32,000 bases of DNA from Candidatus Saccharibacteria bacterium oral taxon 488 (lineage in GTDB: Bacteria > Patescibacteriota > Saccharimonadia > Saccharimonadales > Saccharimonadaceae), in NCBI GenBank assembly GCA_010202845.1, contig CP047921.1, forward strand, positions 600,001-632,000, written 5' to 3'. The stretch's first letter is position 1. Each line of letters begins with the position of its first letter. A program made the position numbers and the translations under genes. This document shows, one piece after another, positions 21,228-30,127 of this stretch. The notes beneath the pieces were generated by a model. The model had not been told where the DNA came from and did no database searches. It worked only from the letters and a program-made list of their open reading frames with translations.

Positions 21228-22274
21228 CTAGTGGATAAAGTTATACCGACCAACTTCAGACATCGGGATTGTTCGATGCGTCACGACGTTATACCCAGCA
21301 TAATTCATGTCGCTAACGTAGATCGTGCCACCTTCAACCCGCTCGACCATACCGACATGGCCAAGACCACCGCCGCCCCATGTCGTCTGGAAGATTGCCC
21401 CTGGTGCTGGTGTATGATTAACAACAAAACCTGCTGCCCGAGCACTTGCCGCCCACGACGTTGCGTTGCCCCAGAAACTACCGATTGGTCGACCAAGTGC
21501 TGCTCGCCGCTCGTACACATACCACGTACAGTTGCCAAGAGCGTATCGATTGCCAACTGATGCTCGAGCGTAACCATAGCTGATACCACTGACTGCGCCG
21601 CCCGTTGTCCGCCCTGCATAACCCCGACGGCCCGAGCGCGACGCCACGTAACCTGGCTGCTCATTTTCTGGCAACACACCGCCTGGCAAGACAATCCGCG
21701 TATCTTTAGCCAGTGCCGCCCCACTTGCCAAGTCGTTATACAATGCCACTCGTTCAGGATTTGCTTTATACTTTTCTGCCAATTTTTCGATGGTGTCGCC
21801 GTCCTTAACAGTGTAGACCACACCATCAACCATCGGAATAATCAATGTCTTGCCGGCTTCAACCGCATCAGATGTCGTATTGTTCGCCCAGCGCACCGTC
21901 TGTGCTGTCACGTTAAACTTCTTGGCAATAGAATTAATCGTATCACCCTGTTTGGTGACATAAGTCTTGATCCCGCGCTGGGCCGACTTTTCTGGCTGGA
22001 CGATTTGTGGCTTGGAGATAACTTCAGTATCGCCCTGAGCCAGTTCTTTTTTGATCGACAGTGTTGCCGTCGCTTCGCGCAAGTCACCCGCAGTCGGCAG
22101 ATTAACTGTCTCAGCTAGATCAGTTACCGCATTAGCAGCCGCTAGCTGGTCTACCGAGACCTTATTGGCCTTATTCGTCTCATGAGCTGGGCCAGTAGAC
22201 GGTGCGACCGGCTGGGAGGCGGACACCGAGCCCTGCCGGCTGGCAACCCCGCCCGTTTGGTAGCTCAATGCCAA
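21228..22274 (-). CDS. LysM-repeat / CHAP-domain peptidoglycan hydrolase
   Basis: Two LysM repeats (YVTKQGDTINSIAKKFNVTAQTVRWAN and YTVKDGDTIEKLAEKYKANPERVALYN). C-terminal CHAP domain with the catalytic Cys in GNCTWYVYERR and His in GHVGMVERV. The TTG at 22274 is the first canonical start, but the reading frame stays open upstream to 22382 and encodes a signal anchor (see findings), so the true start is probably upstream. Confidence 0.88.
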   Translation of the reverse strand: MALSYQTGGVASRQGSVSASQPVAPSTGPAHETNKANKVSVDQLAAANAVTDLAETVNLPTAGDLREATATLSIKKELAQGDTEVISKPQIVQPEKSAQRGIKTYVTKQGDTINSIAKKFNVTAQTVRWANNTTSDAVEAGKTLIIPMVDGVVYTVKDGDTIEKLAEKYKANPERVALYNDLASGAALAKDTRIVLPGGVLPENEQPGYVASRSGRRGYAGRTTGGAVSGISYGYARASVGNRYALGNCTWYVYERRAALGRPIGSFWGNATSWAASARAAGFVVNHTPAPGAIFQTTWGGGGLGHVGMVERVEGGTIYVSDMNYAGYNVVTHRTIPMSEVGRYNFIH

Positions 22275-23429: not shown

Positions 23430-23497
23430 CCAATATAAATGTGGAACTCCTTTTTCGCGATTTGTTTGTGCTGCGGGATCGCTTTAAGGAGCTTGGT

Positions 23498-23554
23498 ATG
23501 GTTATCAAAAATGGCGAGGTGTATTTGCCGGATTTGGAGGAGCGCGATGTTTAA
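23498..23554 (+). CDS. 18-codon upstream ORF overlapping the PLD start (MVIKNGEVYLPDLEERDV)
   Basis: AAGGAG lies 6 nt upstream of the ATG at 23498. Its TAA stop (23552-23554) overlaps the PLD ATG at 23547 within ATGTTTAA. It could be a coupling uORF or a frameshift remnant. Confidence 0.25.
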   Translation: MVIKNGEVYLPDLEERDV

Positions 23555-24008
23555 TTTGCGAAAATCGAGCTCAAAACTCTACGACCAGAACACTTTTGAC
23601 GACCAGTTTATGCGCGACTTACGAAGAGCTCGAAAAAGCGTTATTATCGAAAGCCCGTTCCTCAGAACTGCCCGAGTTGAAAGATTCATCTCGATATTTC
23701 ATCGGCTCAAAAAGCGTGGCGTGGCAATATTACTTAACACCAAACCGCTTGAAGAACACTATGAAATATACAAATTGCAAGTCCAAAAATCTCTAAGTTT
23801 ACTACAATCTGCGGGTGTCGACGTTCTTTTTACAGTCAAACATCACCGTAAATTAGCCATCATTGATAGGCAGGTTATTTACGAAGGCAGCTTAAATATT
23901 CTCTCATATCACGATAGTTGTGAGATAATGAGGAGGACGACATCTACACTCGAAGCGGAAATGTTGATAGATTTTATCGGCTTAAATAAATTTATGGAGG
24001 TGAAATAA
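23547..24008 (+). CDS. PLD-family (single HKD) nuclease-like protein
   Basis: HKD motif HHRKLAIID (HxKxxxxD) followed by EGSLN (GSxN) in a 153-aa protein. GGAGGA Shine-Dalgarno lies 7 nt upstream of the ATG at 23547. The longer track ORF starting at 23439 has no Shine-Dalgarno and a Cys/Trp-rich junk-like N-terminus. Confidence 0.8.
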   Translation: MFNLRKSSSKLYDQNTFDDQFMRDLRRARKSVIIESPFLRTARVERFISIFHRLKKRGVAILLNTKPLEEHYEIYKLQVQKSLSLLQSAGVDVLFTVKHHRKLAIIDRQVIYEGSLNILSYHDSCEIMRRTTSTLEAEMLIDFIGLNKFMEVK

Positions 24009-24010
24009 TT

Positions 24011-24238
24011 ATGAACAACGAGGACACGATCAAAAATCTTCATCTGTACGAAGACGAAGAAACGATTCAGAAAACGATCCACTACCTGGAGCTTCACGAC
24101 CCAGACAATGCCAATCGCGAATACGCGGTCGGATTTCTGAAATTCATGCAGCGATTTGCGCATGTCGCTAGCAGGAGTGAAGGGTTTGATCTTGAGGGGC
24201 TTTTGAAGAAGTACAAGAAACAGGACAGTGCCTCTTAA
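24011..24238 (+). CDS. small acidic hypothetical protein, partner of the PLD nuclease
   Basis: 75 aa. Its ATG is 2 nt after the PLD stop, with GGAGGTGA 6 nt upstream (inside the PLD 3' end), which indicates translational coupling. The N-terminus is acidic (NNEDTIKNLHLYEDEETIQ...HDPDN). No recognisable motif. Confidence 0.6.
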   Translation: MNNEDTIKNLHLYEDEETIQKTIHYLELHDPDNANREYAVGFLKFMQRFAHVASRSEGFDLEGLLKKYKKQDSAS

Positions 24239-24258
24239 TAGACTTCAACGCGGCGGTG

Positions 24259-25965
24259 CTAAAAAGTTACACCCAGTAATGTGCCGTGCTCGTCTTTGTC
24301 GTTAAACCTTGCGATAATGTATTTGCTAAGGTTATCGGTAAATTCTTCCGGTAGAGAGTCATACGGCATATACCCAGAATTCATGGAGCAAATATACTGA
24401 AAGTCTAACGACTCGGCTTTGCTACTAGAAATTTCTAGAGCTTTTGCTACCTGTCTAGGATCTACGTCTGCAAATATTTTTGAATCGTGGAATAAGGGAA
24501 ATTCTCTGTGACGTATAGTAGACCAATATTCAGCTAGCATAAGATCGTAGCAGAACACCTTCATACTACTAACGCCGTCGCTGCCAGCTTTTTTAATATC
24601 AATTTTAAACTTATAGCCTTCTTTATCTACATCAATAGAGAGTGTCCCGGGCTGTTCGTACAAAAATCGAGAGTTTGAATTAAATAAACGTATAGCTGTT
24701 GATATTAGCGGCTGGTCTCCGTTATATTCCTGCCACATCTTTGATATAACATCGCTAATCTCTATTCGTATGTCATCAATCCTTGACTTAATCTCCGTGA
24801 GTCGAGAAATTCTGCTCTCTATGTCTGCTATCTTGGTCTTGCTTTTGTTGACTTCATCTTGAAGTTTTGTATATTCATCAAGAGCTCCATGTGTCTTTAG
24901 TATATTCAAATAGCCAGCTCTCTCATTTGAGAGTTTTTCCATTTTGTTATCCAAAGCTCTGTTTTTTGTTACATATAGCTCGATCTCGCTTTCTAGATAA
25001 TTTTTCCTGTTAAGTACTACGTCTCTGTGAAAATTAATCACCTCATCGAGTGTGCGTAGAGAGGATTTTTCAAAGACGGCGCCCGCTGCTTCGTATATTT
25101 GCTCTATTTTTATATCATCACCGTTTTCATTTTTTAAACTGTCTTTGTATCTCTCTACTATTTGAGAGTTTATAGTGATTTCATTGATAATATCGTGGAT
25201 TTCTTTAGTTAAAGTGTCTGCTTTAGCCTGTATATCTCTATAGTCTTCGTGAACTTGAAAATTTTCTAGTCTTTTCATCTTCTCCGCAAGTTGCAACTCA
25301 ACGTCTATTTTCTCTGAGTTCAAATCGCCCACCGTACCTCCAAACGCATCAAAAGCACCCGTTTCAATAGCTTTGTTTGCACTATCTAATTTTTTAAATT
25401 CAGATTTGAGTTGCGAGAATTTGACAGATAGCTGCCAATTTAATCCTAGCAGAAAAGCGGTATTGTTATCTCTAGATAGTGCTTTCTGCCGAGCAAAGCA
25501 TAAGAAAGGATCAGAGAATGCGCCATCATCAGTTCTCATGAAGTACGACGCCAATGTGCGATACGTAGGGTGATTGCTTTTGTCTTTTACTTCACGTACA
25601 CTAACACCAAACAATTTCTCTCCTAAGGTTAGACAAACTTCATCTGCGCTAATATCTTCAACTCCTAGCGCCACTATGTATTTTTTGTGATCATTTACTG
25701 CTCGCTTGAGAACAACCTCTTCTCCGTCTATCTCGATAGTCAAGCTGAATACCCAATCTTTCATCTCTTCTTTTTTAAGAGTTTTTGACGGCTTACCTCC
25801 CAGGCAATAATTTACAATTTCAAGCAATAGCGTTTTACCTAAGCCATTAGTGGAATGCTTGTCGCTGGAGTCTTGGTCGCGGTCGGCTATGATTATATTA
25901 AAACCTCTACGAAATTGTATGGTTTTAAAACTGCTTTTGTTTGCGCTTAATTTAACTAATTTCAT
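24259..25965 (-). CDS. ABC/SMC-like ATPase with coiled-coil insert (DUF2326-like; ABC-3C ATPase component)
   Basis: 568 aa. N-terminal beta-strand plus Walker A: FNIIIADRD...STNGLGKTLLLEIVNYCLGG. The central stretch of about 200 aa is heptad-rich and charged (LQLAEKMKRLENFQVHEDYRDIQAKADTLTKEIHDIINEI...IADIESRISRLTEIKSRIDDIRIEI). The C-terminal head carries a signature-like AGSDGVSSMKVFCYDLMLAEY and a Walker B-like EFPLFHDSKIF. Confidence 0.85.
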   Translation of the reverse strand: MKLVKLSANKSSFKTIQFRRGFNIIIADRDQDSSDKHSTNGLGKTLLLEIVNYCLGGKPSKTLKKEEMKDWVFSLTIEIDGEEVVLKRAVNDHKKYIVALGVEDISADEVCLTLGEKLFGVSVREVKDKSNHPTYRTLASYFMRTDDGAFSDPFLCFARQKALSRDNNTAFLLGLNWQLSVKFSQLKSEFKKLDSANKAIETGAFDAFGGTVGDLNSEKIDVELQLAEKMKRLENFQVHEDYRDIQAKADTLTKEIHDIINEITINSQIVERYKDSLKNENGDDIKIEQIYEAAGAVFEKSSLRTLDEVINFHRDVVLNRKNYLESEIELYVTKNRALDNKMEKLSNERAGYLNILKTHGALDEYTKLQDEVNKSKTKIADIESRISRLTEIKSRIDDIRIEISDVISKMWQEYNGDQPLISTAIRLFNSNSRFLYEQPGTLSIDVDKEGYKFKIDIKKAGSDGVSSMKVFCYDLMLAEYWSTIRHREFPLFHDSKIFADVDPRQVAKALEISSSKAESLDFQYICSMNSGYMPYDSLPEEFTDNLSKYIIARFNDKDEHGTLLGVTF

Positions 25966-26194
25966 GTTTTTTATTTTTTTCGATTACTCCATTATTATAC
26001 AGTATAGCTCCGGAGGAGTACAGTAACACCAGAGCTGCAATAAACTTCTCAAACGTACCTATTTCTTCATATACCTTCACTTTGCTCCATAACGAACTCA
26101 CTGTTTCAACTGAATCTATGTTTTGAAGAAGTATTGCACCAACTCCAACGACCGAAAACCCCACGCGAATAGTTTTATCTGGAAGTATTATCAT
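25952..26194 (-). CDS. small 80-aa protein (candidate ABC-3C middle component)
   Basis: Its start overlaps the HNH stop in ATGA (26194-26191), and its 3' end overlaps the ATPase start by 14 nt. It has two hydrophobic stretches (VGFSVVGVGAILL, FIAALVLLYSSGAIL), so a membrane protein cannot be excluded. The functional call rests on operon position only. Confidence 0.6.
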   Translation of the reverse strand: MIILPDKTIRVGFSVVGVGAILLQNIDSVETVSSLWSKVKVYEEIGTFEKFIAALVLLYSSGAILYNNGVIEKNKKHEIS

Positions 26195-26925
26195 TTTTCA
26201 AACACCTCACATAGCTGAAAATAGTAGGCCACTATTCCGTAAGCTGCAGCCATATGACGAGGGTCGCTACTGTCGCTAGAGGCTGCTTGCACTAGAGAGT
26301 AAAATATAGCATCCCCGTTATCAGTATCTCTTCTTAAATTTTTATACTTTTGTACAAAAAATACCCTTAATTTTTCTGGATAGTCTTCGCTAGCATTTTT
26401 GTTTAAAAAATTATCAATCAGCGATACAGAAGCCATGCCCATTTTTAACATCTGCTCTGTCTGCAGACTTAGACTATTTTTGTGCACTTTATCCTTTATA
26501 GGTATCAGTCCAAAGTCTTCGCTATCGTATTTCAAAGGAGGGTTATCTATTATGTGCCGAAGAGTTTCCTCGAGTTCTCTAAATGTGATTGTCGGTAAGC
26601 TTCTCTTTATGGCTCGCTCAATGCGCTCCTCATGCAAAGATTTGATTTCATGAAGATAGTCAACAGAGTATTGTACTGCACTCTTATCAATAATAGTGTG
26701 ACATGTTGGACAGAGAAGAATAAGATTATTATAGGAATGACGTTCGATATCACTCTGACTGTCATCGTAGCGTGCAGAATTCGGCCTATGCCCCTTAATA
26801 TGAGCCATTTCTCCTACAGGAATCAGTGTGTCAGTTTGACGCTCAACTACTAGGTTATTGCACATTGCACAGAGACTGCCACTTTTTGCCCATAGAATTT
26901 TCATGCTTGATTGAGGAATACCCAT
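26191..26925 (-). CDS. HNH endonuclease with C-terminal helical domain (candidate ABC-3C effector)
   Basis: The treble-clef HNH is CAMCNN...MAHIKGH...YNNLILLCPTCHTIIDK: two CxxC pairs, a catalytic His, and an Asn. A helical region of about 150 aa follows, ending AAAYGIVAYYFQLCEVFEK. Confidence 0.85.
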   Translation of the reverse strand: MGIPQSSMKILWAKSGSLCAMCNNLVVERQTDTLIPVGEMAHIKGHRPNSARYDDSQSDIERHSYNNLILLCPTCHTIIDKSAVQYSVDYLHEIKSLHEERIERAIKRSLPTITFRELEETLRHIIDNPPLKYDSEDFGLIPIKDKVHKNSLSLQTEQMLKMGMASVSLIDNFLNKNASEDYPEKLRVFFVQKYKNLRRDTDNGDAIFYSLVQAASSDSSDPRHMAAAYGIVAYYFQLCEVFEK

Positions 26926-26934
26926 TTGTCTATT

Positions 26935-26943
26935 ATTGTATCA
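26935..26943 (-). promoter_or_regulatory. extended -10 (TGaTACAAT) 9 nt upstream of the HNH ATG
   Basis: The minus strand reads TGATACAAT-AATAGACAA-ATG, inside the 47-nt gap after the coupling-ATPase stop. No Shine-Dalgarno is present. Confidence 0.4.
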
Positions 26944-26972
26944 CTCGATACTGCTTGTGCCTAGCTGAAGCC

Positions 26973-29576
26973 TCATATTTCATCTATCATCAACTCCGCC
27001 GTAATCTGTGACTTTTTCTTTGTTCGCCCGTTGGTCTTAGCGACTTTTCTTGACGAAGACCTACCAGAACTTTCTTGTCCAGAAACCTCTTCTCGTCTCC
27101 TGGCAAATTCCTTTCGTGAATGTTTAACAATTTCATTTCTCACTGCCTCATCGCCATCGCTTTCTAGCAATAAAGTCTGCCCGGATAGCGGCTCTTGCGT
27201 GTGCACCGCCGCCAGCCTAGCGTAATAATTATATGCTGGCAGGTTGCTGATTTCGCCCGGTTCAATATACGGGCTAAACATCGGCAGTAAACGCTGTTCA
27301 TCTTGCGGATTGCCGGTTCGGAAGCAGATAATCGTGCCAGTATTTGCCAAAATTATATTCACTGTTTGCTGGTCGCTTTGCTGCGAAGTAGACTGCTCGG
27401 CCATGATCATAAAGACGCGATATTTGCGGCTCTCAGACAGCATTTGCACAAATGATGTTGTGGCGAAATTCTGAAACTCATCGACATACAGATAGAATGT
27501 CCGCCGCTCCGCTTGCTTGAGTCGGGCGCGGCGGAGACTTGCGAGCTGGAGCTTCGCAAGTACGGTGATTCCAAATAGCTCAGATGTATCTTCGCCAAGC
27601 AAGCCTTTGGACAAATTACAAATCAGTATTTTCCCCGAGTTGATAATATCATCAAAATCAATCGTCGATTTTGGTTGCTCGAGAATTTGCCGAGCTGACG
27701 CTGAAAATAAAAACCGCCCAATTTTCGCTGTAATCCCTGCTGACATTTTTACTTTCTGCATATCGCCAGCTTTGCCAAACTCGTTCTTCCAGAAGTTTAT
27801 CAAGTTTGTGTCGTCAAGATTTTTAACGACACTGCGGCGATATTTTGGGTCGTTTAGCAAATCAAACACAGTAAAAAGCGTGGAATTTTCCTGCATGAGT
27901 GCGGTTTGAATGGTGTTGCGCAAAATGTATTCGATACGATGCCCGCCCGAGTCCTCGTCGCTAAAGATTTTCCGAAAAATCGACACGACCGACTCAGTAA
28001 TAAGATCTTTTTCGCGCATCAACTCGCTGCCGTCTAGCCCAGGCGCTAGCTCCAATAAATTCAAACCAACCGGATAATCCAAATCATCAGGATTGAAATA
28101 AATTACATCGCCAAGGCGCTCCGGAGGAACGTGCCGCAAAATCGTCTCCGCCATATCGCCATGCGGGTCAATTACAGCCACGCCTTTGCCGTTACAAATA
28201 TCTTGCACAATTTGATATTGCAACATCGTAGTTTTGCCGCTACCCGTACCGCCGATGATGTACTGATGGCGCTCGCGCTCAGCTTCCATCAAGCCAATCG
28301 GCGTCACCGTATTGTGATGATGATTTTCACCAATAATCACATCGAAACTTTCTGACTGCTTGAGTGAAATCGGCGCGGGTAGCGTGCGGCTGAGCGAAGT
28401 TATCAGATTGTCGGTTTTACTATGATAACTTGAAGGAAAATGAAACAAGCTAGCAAGTTCGCTTGAAGCGAGGATTATGGAGCTATTTTTATGCAGCGAT
28501 GGCAGGCGCTTTATGGATGCAAGAATTAGCAGGTTGTTCAGAATCGGCATACGATACTTTGCTTTGAGTGATTGATATGGCGGTGTACTAAAACCGTCCA
28601 GCGCGGATTTAAGCGCGGCGATATGTCTCTTTGTTTCTGGACTACTTACCATGATGCGTAGGTTGACATAAAATAGCGGACGAGTCACTTTTTGGTGCAT
28701 GGTTTCCATTAGTTCTAATTCAAAAGCACTTAGCATGCGCGCCGGGCGGTCACCTCGCGGCACCCTGATTTGCTGCCGCGGGGATACGGTTTTTGAATGG
28801 TAGTAATTACGGTAACTAGTTGTCATGCTAGCATGAACTTCGCTGACGAGGTCGGTTGCGCCAGAAGAAATTTTGCCAAAAAAGCTAGCTAATCTGCCGA
28901 GCATTGATAGTTTTTTGCCGCTAACATATTGCAAAATGTTTTCATTGCCGAGAATTTTATGCGACAGAATTTCTGCTTCACGTAAGCGCGCTGGTGTTGC
29001 TATAAGCTGCAAAATAATTTCCTCTTCGTCATCTAACCTGGTCATCGCACCAATCACATAACTGAGTGGATCGCGTTGCTCTAGCGTCGAATTTATAGCT
29101 AACGGCAAGACGTAATGCCCAGTTTCTCGAAATTCAATAACTTGATAATCATCACCGCTCTTTCGCTCAACTGTGCGAACCTTTGAGTCGGCGATGTAGG
29201 AGGTAATCACTTTTTGCATGTTCGCAGCGTGACGCCGTTCGACCTGCACCAAATACCGCACGCCGTGCTCTTTAGTTGATGTAATTTCAAAACTCATAAC
29301 TGGCGACCGACCGAGCAATTTTTCTTTGAGTGAGCGCGCCGCCCGATGTCCATGAATTACCGAAAATAGTTGCTCGGTTGCTTCAGGTGTTTTGGCGATC
29401 GTGGCAGGCGGTGTAATTTCCAGCCAAACCATGCCTCGTGTTCGCAAATATCGACGATTCAAAACAAAACGAATCACCAACCACAAAATGACCGCGCTAA
29501 TCGTAAGCGTGATTACGATTAAAACTATCGACCCAAGCCATAAGGTGGTGGCGAGGTAATCGGCTGTAGATTCCAC
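26973..29576 (-). CDS. type IV secretion coupling-protein-like ATPase (VirD4/TraD/TrwB family)
   Basis: 867 aa. N-terminal TM helix LWLGSIVLIVITLTISAVILWLVIRFVL. Walker A IIGGTGSGKTT at about residues 441-450, followed by AVIDPHGD. Walker B FYLYVDEFQNF. Basic C-terminal tail. The GTG start at 29576 overlaps the CHAP gene by 52 nt. Confidence 0.8.
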   Translation of the reverse strand: MESTADYLATTLWLGSIVLIVITLTISAVILWLVIRFVLNRRYLRTRGMVWLEITPPATIAKTPEATEQLFSVIHGHRAARSLKEKLLGRSPVMSFEITSTKEHGVRYLVQVERRHAANMQKVITSYIADSKVRTVERKSGDDYQVIEFRETGHYVLPLAINSTLEQRDPLSYVIGAMTRLDDEEEIILQLIATPARLREAEILSHKILGNENILQYVSGKKLSMLGRLASFFGKISSGATDLVSEVHASMTTSYRNYYHSKTVSPRQQIRVPRGDRPARMLSAFELELMETMHQKVTRPLFYVNLRIMVSSPETKRHIAALKSALDGFSTPPYQSLKAKYRMPILNNLLILASIKRLPSLHKNSSIILASSELASLFHFPSSYHSKTDNLITSLSRTLPAPISLKQSESFDVIIGENHHHNTVTPIGLMEAERERHQYIIGGTGSGKTTMLQYQIVQDICNGKGVAVIDPHGDMAETILRHVPPERLGDVIYFNPDDLDYPVGLNLLELAPGLDGSELMREKDLITESVVSIFRKIFSDEDSGGHRIEYILRNTIQTALMQENSTLFTVFDLLNDPKYRRSVVKNLDDTNLINFWKNEFGKAGDMQKVKMSAGITAKIGRFLFSASARQILEQPKSTIDFDDIINSGKILICNLSKGLLGEDTSELFGITVLAKLQLASLRRARLKQAERRTFYLYVDEFQNFATTSFVQMLSESRKYRVFMIMAEQSTSQQSDQQTVNIILANTGTIICFRTGNPQDEQRLLPMFSPYIEPGEISNLPAYNYYARLAAVHTQEPLSGQTLLLESDGDEAVRNEIVKHSRKEFARRREEVSGQESSGRSSSRKVAKTNGRTKKKSQITAELMIDEI

Positions 29577-30127
29577 GGCTGTGCTCCTGGTTTATTATGA
29601 ATAAATTTATAAGATTTGGCGACTTCTTTGGAAAAAGTGCGCTGCGACACCACGTTCAAACCGCGCGCGTTCATTTCAGAAATTTTCCAATCACCGCTGA
29701 TTTGATTAACTTCTATCACATACGCAACATGTCCATAATGGCCTTCATCAGTCTGAAAAACTGCACCAGCCGCTGGTGTATCGTTGACGATGTAGCCATC
29801 ACGCTTGGCGTTATCATCCCAGGTATTAGCGTTGCCCCAAGTGTTCGGAATCGGACTGTTTGCCCACCGACGCATCGCATACGCCCACCACGTACAGTTG
29901 CCCCAGGCGTAAGTGTTTCCGGGCATCACGCCGCCGTTATAAAAACCACGTTCTTCCACCGCTTTGGCGCTCGGTGCATTTGCTAAAAAGCTCATTGCCG
30001 GTAAGCCAAGTGATGAAATAGCTAAAATCGGAAACGTCAAAATAAGCAATAATGTAGCGATGATTATAGCTATAATTTTCTTAATGCTGAAACCAAAATT
30101 TGTAAACAAAACTACCGCGCCGTTCAT
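29525..30127 (-). CDS. membrane-anchored CHAP-domain peptidoglycan hydrolase (VirB1-analogue)
   Basis: N-terminal TM helix IIAIIIATLLLILTFPILAI. CHAP catalytic Cys in GNCTWWAYAMRRW and His in GHVAYVIEV. Its start overlaps the VirB4 stop in ATGA (30127-30124). Confidence 0.85.
   Translation of the reverse strand: MNGAVVLFTNFGFSIKKIIAIIIATLLLILTFPILAISSLGLPAMSFLANAPSAKAVEERGFYNGGVMPGNTYAWGNCTWWAYAMRRWANSPIPNTWGNANTWDDNAKRDGYIVNDTPAAGAVFQTDEGHYGHVAYVIEVNQISGDWKISEMNARGLNVVSQRTFSKEVAKSYKFIHNKPGAQPWNLQPITSPPPYGLGR

Follow-up and report, generated by a model that had tools for sequence, protein, structure and literature searches.

A probable Lamassu (ABC-3C) operon of the short type II form, armed with an HNH nuclease, in an oral Saccharibacteria genome

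We analyzed an operon of three overlapping genes (lmuA, lmuC, and lmuB) in a 32,000-nucleotide stretch of the genome of Candidatus Saccharibacteria bacterium oral taxon 488 (assembly GCA_010202845.1, contig CP047921.1, positions 600,001–632,000 of the forward strand). This whole stretch is referred to as the window, and positions are counted from its first letter. The operon is very probably an intact three-gene short type II Lamassu system, which would act by abortive infection and use a Cap5/SPARHA-type HNH DNase as its effector. About the Lamassu classification itself, also known as the ATP-binding cassette (ABC) three-component class (ABC-3C), there is little doubt. The operon is a further example of a known system and not a new kind. 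The novelty seen in it by an earlier reading made from the letters alone (the sequence-only reading) did not hold, as Lamassu is known and understood mechanistically, and HNH has been published as one of its effector types.

Results

The six-frame list contained three consecutive minus-strand open reading frames (ORFs), which encode proteins of 244, 80, and 568 residues (LmuA, LmuC, and LmuB, Table 1). Pfam profiles assigned all three above the cut-offs. The 568-residue protein matched DUF2326 (E = 1.2e-32, 113 bits against a cut-off of 28.7, residues 432–568) and, weakly, AAA_23. The 80-residue protein, described as motif-less in the sequence-only reading, turned out to be a member of MC6 (PF20293, E = 4.1e-10, 40 bits against 27.2, residues 4–70). 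The 244-residue protein yielded CTD10 (PF20275, E = 3.9e-12, 47.3 bits against 28.1, residues 117–243), as well as HNH (1.4e-4, 22.4 bits against 21.4) and HNH_2 (1.5e-4) at residues 35–81. This combination of DUF2326, a middle-component (MC) family, an effector C-terminal domain (CTD) family, and HNH is what the sequence-only reading had named as the outcome to expect. The ABC-3C families of Pfam stem from the classification of Krishnan et al. (2020). In NCBIfam, none of the three scored above a family cut-off (TrlF reached 47 bits against a cut-off of 350).

The lmuC gene lies between the other two and its codons overlap both. The stop of lmuA and the start of lmuC share an ATGA at 26194–26191, read on the minus strand, and the end of lmuC overlaps the start of lmuB by 14 nt (25952–25965). 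Upstream, a gap of 47 nt separates lmuA from the gene of an 867-residue coupling protein of a type IV secretion system (T4SS). The coordinates, overlaps, and gap given in the sequence-only reading were all recovered from the sequence.

For the ATPase family, the protein collection yielded at least 625 relatives, and species-representative genomes yielded 294 stretches that contain it. The family spans many bacterial phyla and also archaea (Woesearchaeota, Methanosarcinaceae, Thermococci, Methanoperedens, and Heimdallarchaeota). For the synteny count, ORFs were called in 88 loci and searched iteratively with the window proteins; the 82 whose upstream sequence reached at least 1100 nt were counted. 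The MC6 gene abutted the ATPase gene upstream in 78 of these loci, and a CTD10-bearing gene preceded it in 76. The full triad of HNH-CTD10, MC6, and ATPase genes was present in 58 of the 82, in bacteria and archaea alike, which bears out the prediction that the three genes would be found together in other genomes. Since all three proteins exceed the Pfam gathering scores and the triad recurs at this frequency, the observation lies far beyond chance. The 4-nt overlap of the effector and MC genes was nearly universal among the family loci; therefore, translational coupling is a family trait. The ratios of nonsynonymous to synonymous substitution rates (dN/dS) relative to three Saccharibacteria orthologues were 0.12–0.15 for lmuA, 0.04–0.08 for lmuC, and 0.07 for lmuB. 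Translational coupling, synteny across phyla, and purifying selection are all seen for the genes of the operon.

For LmuB, PADLOC returned PDC-M68B (4.6e-170) and, over the full length, the Lamassu LmuB model PDLC03859 (2.5e-20). An alignment of 25 ATPase homologues (35–91% identity) showed that N40, G41, L42, G43, and K44 of the Walker A motif are invariant. G464 of the signature-like motif and L491, H493, and D494 of the Walker B motif are invariant as well, and S462 and S495 of the same two motifs are nearly so. Near the apex of the coiled coil, Y291, G295, F312, and H313 are conserved, and the alignment contains no conserved CxxC zinc hook. The AlphaFold2 (AF2) model (mean predicted local distance difference test score, pLDDT, 86; predicted template modeling score, pTM, 0.70) consists of a head domain and an antiparallel coiled coil. 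The latter comprises about 260 residues, and not about 200 as first estimated from the sequence, with helices at 177–279 and 300–436 and an apex of lower pLDDT at about 280–300. LmuB lacks a variable insert of about 10–40 residues (alignment columns 112–155) that is present in most homologues, and this short form is common to the whole TM7 clade (P0001).

Foldseek comparison of the LmuB model ranked YydD of Bacillus subtilis first (E = 2e-26, TM score 0.70, 21% identity). Solved LmuB chains followed at ranks 2, 3, 6, and 7 (9hqx_B, 9nyg_B, 9hqu_A, and 9ux7_A; E = 3e-12 to 1.5e-10). Their sources are Salmonella, Vibrio, and Bacillus, and one of the complexes is a type I Lamassu (LmuAB). An Smc head (5xei) and a Rad50 chain (7zr1_C) were interspersed, and other Rad50, SMC, and JetC chains ranked lower. 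Single-sequence phmmer of LmuB against the PDB gave nothing meaningful. Because sequence searches barely reach the solved structures, the kinship of LmuB rests on the fold comparison and the PADLOC profile. By analogy with these structures, LmuB is predicted to be the DNA sensor and scaffold of the system.

LmuA matched PDC-M68A in PADLOC (1.6e-62), and models of Cap5-type SAVED-HNH effectors matched residues 3–108 with E values down to 8e-26. Its HNH domain comprises an N-terminal helix (5–15), the zinc ligands C19, C22, C72, and C75, the catalytic H42 (nt 26800–26802), N67, and H76. The corresponding motifs can be read in the sequence as C19-A-M-C22, H42-IKGH, N66-N67, and C72-PTC-H76. Among the PDB sequences, this domain matched Cap5 (7rwm, 1e-12) and an HNH endonuclease chain (9om4, 2e-10), and in Foldseek, its best matches were the activated Cap5 tetramers 8fmh and 8fmf. 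The AF2 model of LmuA (pLDDT 85) contains seven helices in CTD10. The alignment of 54 non-redundant effectors showed 96–100% conservation for C19, C22, H42, R52, N67, C72, H76, and D80. CTD10 had an equally conserved set ending in a C-E-V-F-E tail, in which E117, L118, K146, N150, G163, F190, Y194, F208, F236, C239, and F242 were invariant. All the HNH, Walker A, signature, and Walker B motifs that the sequence-only reading had quoted are thus present, and their residues are invariant or nearly so across the homologues. The sole structural match of the CTD was the YydB chain 9a6c_B of the YydD–YydB model. CTD10 is predicted, again by analogy, to tether the nuclease to the coiled coil of the ATPase and to the middle component. 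The HNH clade of SPARHA has also been found in ABC-3C effectors; such HNH systems have been argued to act as tetramers or higher oligomers, and oligomerization-dependent activation has been predicted (PMC12738770). The 80-residue LmuC had no match in the PDB (phmmer), PADLOC, NCBIfam, or PHROG.

The effector gene varies elsewhere in the ATPase family. In cyanobacterial loci, the MC6 gene is immediately preceded by one encoding an 'effector' of only about 210 residues, which is built from a charged, coiled-coil-like N-terminus of about 75 residues and CTD10 and contains no recognizable enzyme domain (loci L034, L035, L037, L039, L043, L055, L058, L060, L066, L070, L072, L073, L079, and L086). 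PMC12663957 mentions a short-Lamassu clade that lacks an effector, to which this form may correspond. In Pseudanabaena, two loci (L038 and L046) carry a 311-residue effector whose N-terminal domain is a different one.

ABC-3C is the earlier name of type II Lamassu, and the superfamily includes DdmABC (bioRxiv 10.1101/2025.06.23.660979; PMC10586767). Lamassu has been split into long and short forms, the short LmuB having about 600 residues and a Walker B of the type hhhhD[Q/S/T/E] (PMC12663957). The operon has the ABC-3C components, namely a coiled-coil ABC ATPase, a middle gene of an MC family, and an enzymatic effector bearing a CTD, and its triad occurs across unrelated genomes. In its ATPase, it also has these properties of short type II Lamassu: the LmuB fold, a length of 568 residues, a canonical G41-L-G-K44-T Walker A, and the Walker B L-F-H-D494-S495. 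Among the effectors assigned to short Lamassu alone is an HNH type (PMC12663957), which may be the HNH-CTD10 family described here.

The nearest characterized relatives are the LmuACB/DdmABC systems of Vibrio cholerae and Salmonella enterica (PDB 9NY5, 9NYG, 9HQU, and 9HQX). These have the same order of effector, small middle component, and SMC-like ATPase. Their LmuB, too, has about 600 residues; its coiled coil is short, its Walker A is canonical, and its Walker B lacks the catalytic Glu. Their effector likewise joins an N-terminal enzyme to a helical C-terminal docking domain. The families differ: HNH, CTD10, MC6, and DUF2326 in the present operon, Cap4, CTD7, MC3, and DUF3732 in the solved systems. 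The DUF2326 archetype is YydD of B. subtilis, known from an integrative model with YydB (PDB 9A6C). The YydB chain in that model has 481 residues as against 244 for LmuA, and only about 140 columns align. A literature search on YydD and YydB found no functional study of YydBCD. We take the N-terminal domain of YydB to be a phosphoesterase and not an HNH nuclease. In PADLOC, the PDC-M68 models were the best profile matches of LmuA and LmuB over nearly the full length; PDC-M68 is a bioinformatic prediction made through 'guilt-by-embedding', and its model set has no middle-component profile.

The nuclease itself belongs, by sequence and fold, to the HNH clade of Cap5 (SAVED-HNH, of CBASS) and SPARHA (short Argonaute-HNH), including the dimerization helix and the catalytic His. 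The Cap5/SPARHA nuclease is inactive until oligomerized. Unlike these systems, the operon has no SAVED or Argonaute sensor and no cyclic-nucleotide signaling, and sequestration by an SMC-like scaffold would be expected by analogy with Lamassu. An assignment to CBASS was rejected: the Cap5 matches stop at residue 108, the C-terminal half is CTD10 and not SAVED, and there is no CD-NTase gene among the neighbors. Septu likewise pairs an ABC-type ATPase (PtuA) with an HNH protein (PtuB) and consists of two genes without a middle component or CTD. It was also rejected, as PADLOC gave no PtuA or PtuB hit for LmuA, LmuC, or LmuB at E ≤ 1 and the architecture here is three-gene.

The sequence-only reading had regarded ABC-3C systems as essentially uncharacterized. 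This is outdated, since type II Lamassu/DdmABC has cryo-electron microscopy (cryo-EM) structures, a DNA-end-sensing mechanism, and phage and plasmid phenotypes (PMC12663957). In the cryo-EM structures of 2025, the LmuB dimer holds one LmuC and one monomeric LmuA via the C-terminal domain of LmuA, and the binding of dsDNA ends frees LmuA to form a tetramer, which is the active nuclease (bioRxiv 10.1101/2025.06.23.660979; PMC12663957). Related Lamassu systems gave measured protection against phages and plasmids that required Walker A and effector catalysis (PMC10586767; PMC12663957).

With these structures in hand, we propose a mechanism for the operon. As in the Vibrio, Salmonella, and Bacillus complexes, an LmuB dimer would carry one LmuC at the middle of its coiled coils and hold one LmuA by its CTD. 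The nuclease would thereby be kept monomeric and inactive. On an invading phage or plasmid, the complex is predicted to bind free dsDNA ends or intermediates of replication; ATP binding and slow hydrolysis would control this step, after which LmuA would be released. By analogy with Cap5 and SPARHA, the free HNH domains may then dimerize through the N-terminal helix 5–15 and tetramerize, forming a composite active site. The tetramer would cut DNA without sequence specificity, and the infected cell would be killed or arrested before the invader could spread. That the ATPase senses, while the small protein and the CTD tether and license the nuclease, had been proposed in the sequence-only reading and agrees with what the solved Lamassu complexes suggest. 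We regard the full mechanism (sequestration, release at DNA ends, and HNH oligomerization) as reasonably probable; it is graded below the classification, because the CTD10/MC6 docking was taken over from CTD7/MC3 by analogy.

Several points weigh against the assignment and the mechanism. The profile built from the 25 LmuB sequences reached the solved LmuB 9hqu_A only marginally (E = 0.058, Walker A region). In Foldseek, CTD10 did not match the CTD of any solved LmuA. The dimer-bridging Glu of the Cap5 and SPARHA HNH domains is present as E39, yet it is less than 90% conserved in the family. No published experiment was found on a member with DUF2326, MC6, and HNH-CTD10, and PADLOC places PDC-M68 among 145 candidate systems that are predictions only. 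The 2:1:1 architecture and the DNA-end trigger would both be transferred from solved Lamassu.

Table 1. Location of the operon, its protein features, and its immediate flanks in the window.
Feature	Position	Strand	Remarks
lmuA	26191..26925	-	244-aa effector: N-terminal Cap5/SPARHA-type HNH nuclease, linker helix, and ABC-3C CTD10
HNH nuclease domain	26590..26925	-	lmuA residues 1-112; Cap5 sequence and fold matches
CTD10, all-helical C-terminal domain	26197..26577	-	lmuA residues 117-243; PF20275
lmuC	25952..26194	-	80-aa middle component, Pfam MC6
lmuB	24259..25965	-	568-aa SMC/Rad50-like coiled-coil ABC ATPase, DUF2326/YydD family
Walker A / P-loop N40-G-L-G-K44-T45 of lmuB	25831..25848	-	read from sequence and alignment
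Antiparallel coiled-coil arm of lmuB, residues 177-436	24658..25437	-	AF2 model
ABC signature-like motif S462-D-G464-V-S-S of lmuB	24565..24582	-	sequence and alignment
Deviant Walker B F-P-L-F-H-D494-S495 of lmuB	24481..24501	-	Ser replaces the usual catalytic Glu
Promoter-like site TAGGCA, 17 nt, TACAAT, with TG	26935..26963	-	in the 47-nt gap upstream of lmuA; consensus match only
Swappable 2.7-kb cassette, approximate extent	24239..26945	.	homology breaks and G+C trough
T4SS coupling protein, VirD4/TrwB-like, 867 aa (left flank, outside the system)	26973..29576	-	Pfam
PLD-family nuclease-like gene (23439-24008), then orf75 (24011-24238) (right flank, outside the system)	23439..24238	+	PLDc_2 3.2e-9

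The closest relatives of the operon were found in oral Candidatus Saccharibacteria metagenome-assembled genomes (MAGs) and in Candidatus Nanosynbacter sp. TM7-075 (94–96% identity), which bears out the reduced genome that the sequence-only reading had supposed. The rest of the window holds housekeeping genes (Ldh, EF-Tu, GlmS, Tgt, UvrA, Obg, and peptide deformylase) and T4SS genes (VirB4-like, CHAP hydrolase, and coupling protein). Pfam assigned TrwB_AAD_bind, TraG-D_C, and T4SS-DNA_transf to the 867-residue coupling protein (T4CP), which had 336 relatives in metagenome contigs. The G+C content is 0.37–0.40 over the cassette and 0.46–0.54 in most of the window; the low G+C noticed in the sequence-only reading was right in direction, and its figures (30–35% against 57–65%) were not.

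For a census of the site, T4CP was used to scan metagenome contigs, yielding 80 loci at 58–93% identity (L089–L168), of which 78 were tabulated. The right neighbor of the slot is conserved across Saccharibacteria: orf75 (75 residues) and the PLD-family gene, which converge with lmuB, are present even when the slot is empty. In 19 of the 78 loci, orf75 and the PLD gene directly follow the T4CP gene (e.g., L148 9544–10314). The slot contains Lamassu-HNH in 7 loci, a type II restriction–modification (R-M) system with a C5 methylase and a GHKL/Hypoth_Ymh enzyme in 8 (e.g., L094 9652–12391), a Bro-N/PDC-S13 candidate cassette in 6 (e.g., L154 9771–14046), and a two-gene cassette of unassigned family in 10. 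Other content was found in 26 loci, and 2 were too short to classify. Junction alignments between loci with differing cassettes lose homology about 30 nt past the T4CP stop, and it returns at the stop codon of orf75. Neither direct nor inverted repeats that would mark an integration site were found at the flanks in a repeat search.

Comparison with three other Lamassu-bearing loci (L012, L111, and L100) showed that the cassette proteins are 88–95% identical (lmuB dS 0.30–0.76), whereas the flanking T4CP is 71–78% identical (dS 0.82 or saturated). Because of this difference, we conclude that the cassette has been exchanged between lineages and moves independently of its flank; the sequence comparison indicates that lateral exchange among oral Saccharibacteria was probably recent. 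Among the loci of the ATPase family, T4CP or VirB4 was found within 6 kb only in those of Saccharibacteria, in L057 (Candidatus Portnoybacteria), and in L025 (an unclassified MAG). As the slot contents vary and T4CP is rare near other family loci, the position next to the T4SS is a defense insertion hotspot and not evidence of a tie to secretion. The 47-nt adjacency to the coupling ATPase reported in the sequence-only reading stands as a feature of this hotspot. In L011 (Candidatus Nanosynbacter sp. TM7-075, NZ_JAJQJW010000002.1), the triad and the PLD gene are present at 94% identity, and no T4CP or VirB4 was detected in the 6 kb upstream; this cassette may lie in a rearranged context.

The two-gene cassette of the slot is a candidate new defense system. 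It is exemplified by L101 (9656–10693 and 10987–11574, both on the plus strand) and occurs likewise in L090, L091, L106–L108, L115, and L117–L119. Its first protein has 345–364 residues and 84 homologues; it belongs to no Pfam or PADLOC family, and its only match is phrog_3364 (function unknown). The second protein has 191–195 residues and two hydrophobic helices at its N-terminus; it gave a weak Csx1-like match (5e-4).

Further variation was seen around the slot. The PLD protein resembles the C-terminus of the Mokosh protein MkoC (3.8e-12, PADLOC); it also recalls the Nuc endonuclease of conjugative plasmids. The PLD/orf75 pair may be part of the T4SS locus or a small system of its own. Beyond the PLD gene, the near-identical relatives L001 (12852–16020) and L003 (5664–8832) carry a resolvase and a DarT/NADAR (DarTG-like) pair, and L002 and L004 carry unrelated genes. 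Because these loci differ there, a second variable segment lies beyond the PLD gene. In the more distant Saccharibacteria contig L005 (7932–13737), a 53%-identical Lamassu in the same position is followed by a nuclease of the OLD family (ATPase-TOPRIM) and by a type I R-M system (HsdS, HsdM, and HsdR); these genes form a multi-system defense island behind the T4SS genes. Two genes of CHAP-domain peptidoglycan hydrolases flank the region at 21228–22274 and 29525–30127, both on the minus strand. One of them, with LysM repeats, is located outside the T4SS cluster, and the second is found between the VirB4-like and coupling-protein genes, a position typical of monoderm-type T4SSs.

Discussion

The position of the operon could have a meaning of its own. 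In one version, the adjacency would be more than a neutral hotspot: the occupant of the slot would be read from a promoter straddling the T4CP flank, and immunity would be switched on together with the secretion machine. We consider this unlikely. The -35-like part of the promoter-like site upstream of lmuA lies in sequence common to all cassette types. The proposed promoter is weak evidence, because neither promoter-like nor terminator-like sites are enriched over shuffles (14 promoter-like sites in the region against 9.3 ± 3.2). If this version were true, the epibiont would guard its DNA entry route by a DNA-end-sensing immunity expressed with its host-feeding secretion machine, and the two-gene cassette (345-residue and two-helix transmembrane 195-residue proteins) would be a new defense system.

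A direct functional coupling to the T4SS, for example in policing or processing DNA in transit through the T4SS of the epibiont, is less probable still, and we give it only a slight chance. It would fit the start of lmuA 47 nt past the T4CP stop on the same strand and the location of the -35-like element of the only promoter-like site in the conserved T4CP flank. The adjacency also recurs at only 41% T4CP identity, in the Saccharibacteria locus L005, and again in L057 and L025. However, Lamassu occupies 7 of the 78 T4CP slots, 19 are empty, and 24 contain unrelated cassettes. Moreover, about 75 loci of the ATPase family carry the triad without T4CP or VirB4 within 6 kb, and the difference in identity between cassette and T4CP points to independent movement.

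Equally slight is the chance that the operon is mainly a selfish addiction or stabilization module, in which a toxic nuclease checked by its partners keeps the island without real protection against phages. Lamassu is toxic when over-expressed (PMC12663957; PMC11381338), and the cassette behaves as a horizontally exchanged unit, both of which such a module would explain. Related Lamassu systems nevertheless protect against phage and plasmid in a Walker A- and catalysis-dependent manner, the slot is shared with R-M systems, as is typical of defense islands, and all three genes, with the motifs of the sensor ATPase included, are under strong purifying selection.

A housekeeping DNA-repair complex of the SbcCD/Rad50–Mre11 kind that uses an HNH nuclease is very improbable. 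Rad50 and SbcC are among the fold matches, and Lamassu reportedly derives from SbcCD (PMC12663957). Against this, LmuB has no conserved CxxC, there is no adjacent Mre11/SbcD gene, and most Rad50 chains ranked below the solved LmuB in Foldseek. In addition, Ser replaces the catalytic Glu of Walker B, the operon is patchily present among close relatives of one lineage and has low G+C, and its nuclease belongs to the immune Cap5/SPARHA clade. A decaying, non-functional remnant kept by chance in a small genome, which the missing insert of the ATPase might suggest, is just as improbable, since the ORFs are full-length, every catalytic and nucleotide-binding residue is intact, dN/dS is 0.04–0.15, and the short insert form is that of the whole TM7 clade.

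Conclusions

Taken as a short type II Lamassu, the operon adds little to the catalogue of defense systems, and its value is local. It documents a complete Lamassu under selection in the genome of an ultra-small, host-dependent oral Saccharibacteria; no paper in the literature searched names Lamassu together with Saccharibacteria. As a compact 2.7-kb representative of the HNH/MC6/DUF2326 subtype, it could show whether sequestration and release control a Cap5-type HNH nuclease. The two-gene cassette of the slot is a better lead to something new than the Lamassu operon, and the precise slot between the T4CP gene and the orf75/PLD pair could be mined for new systems in Patescibacteria.

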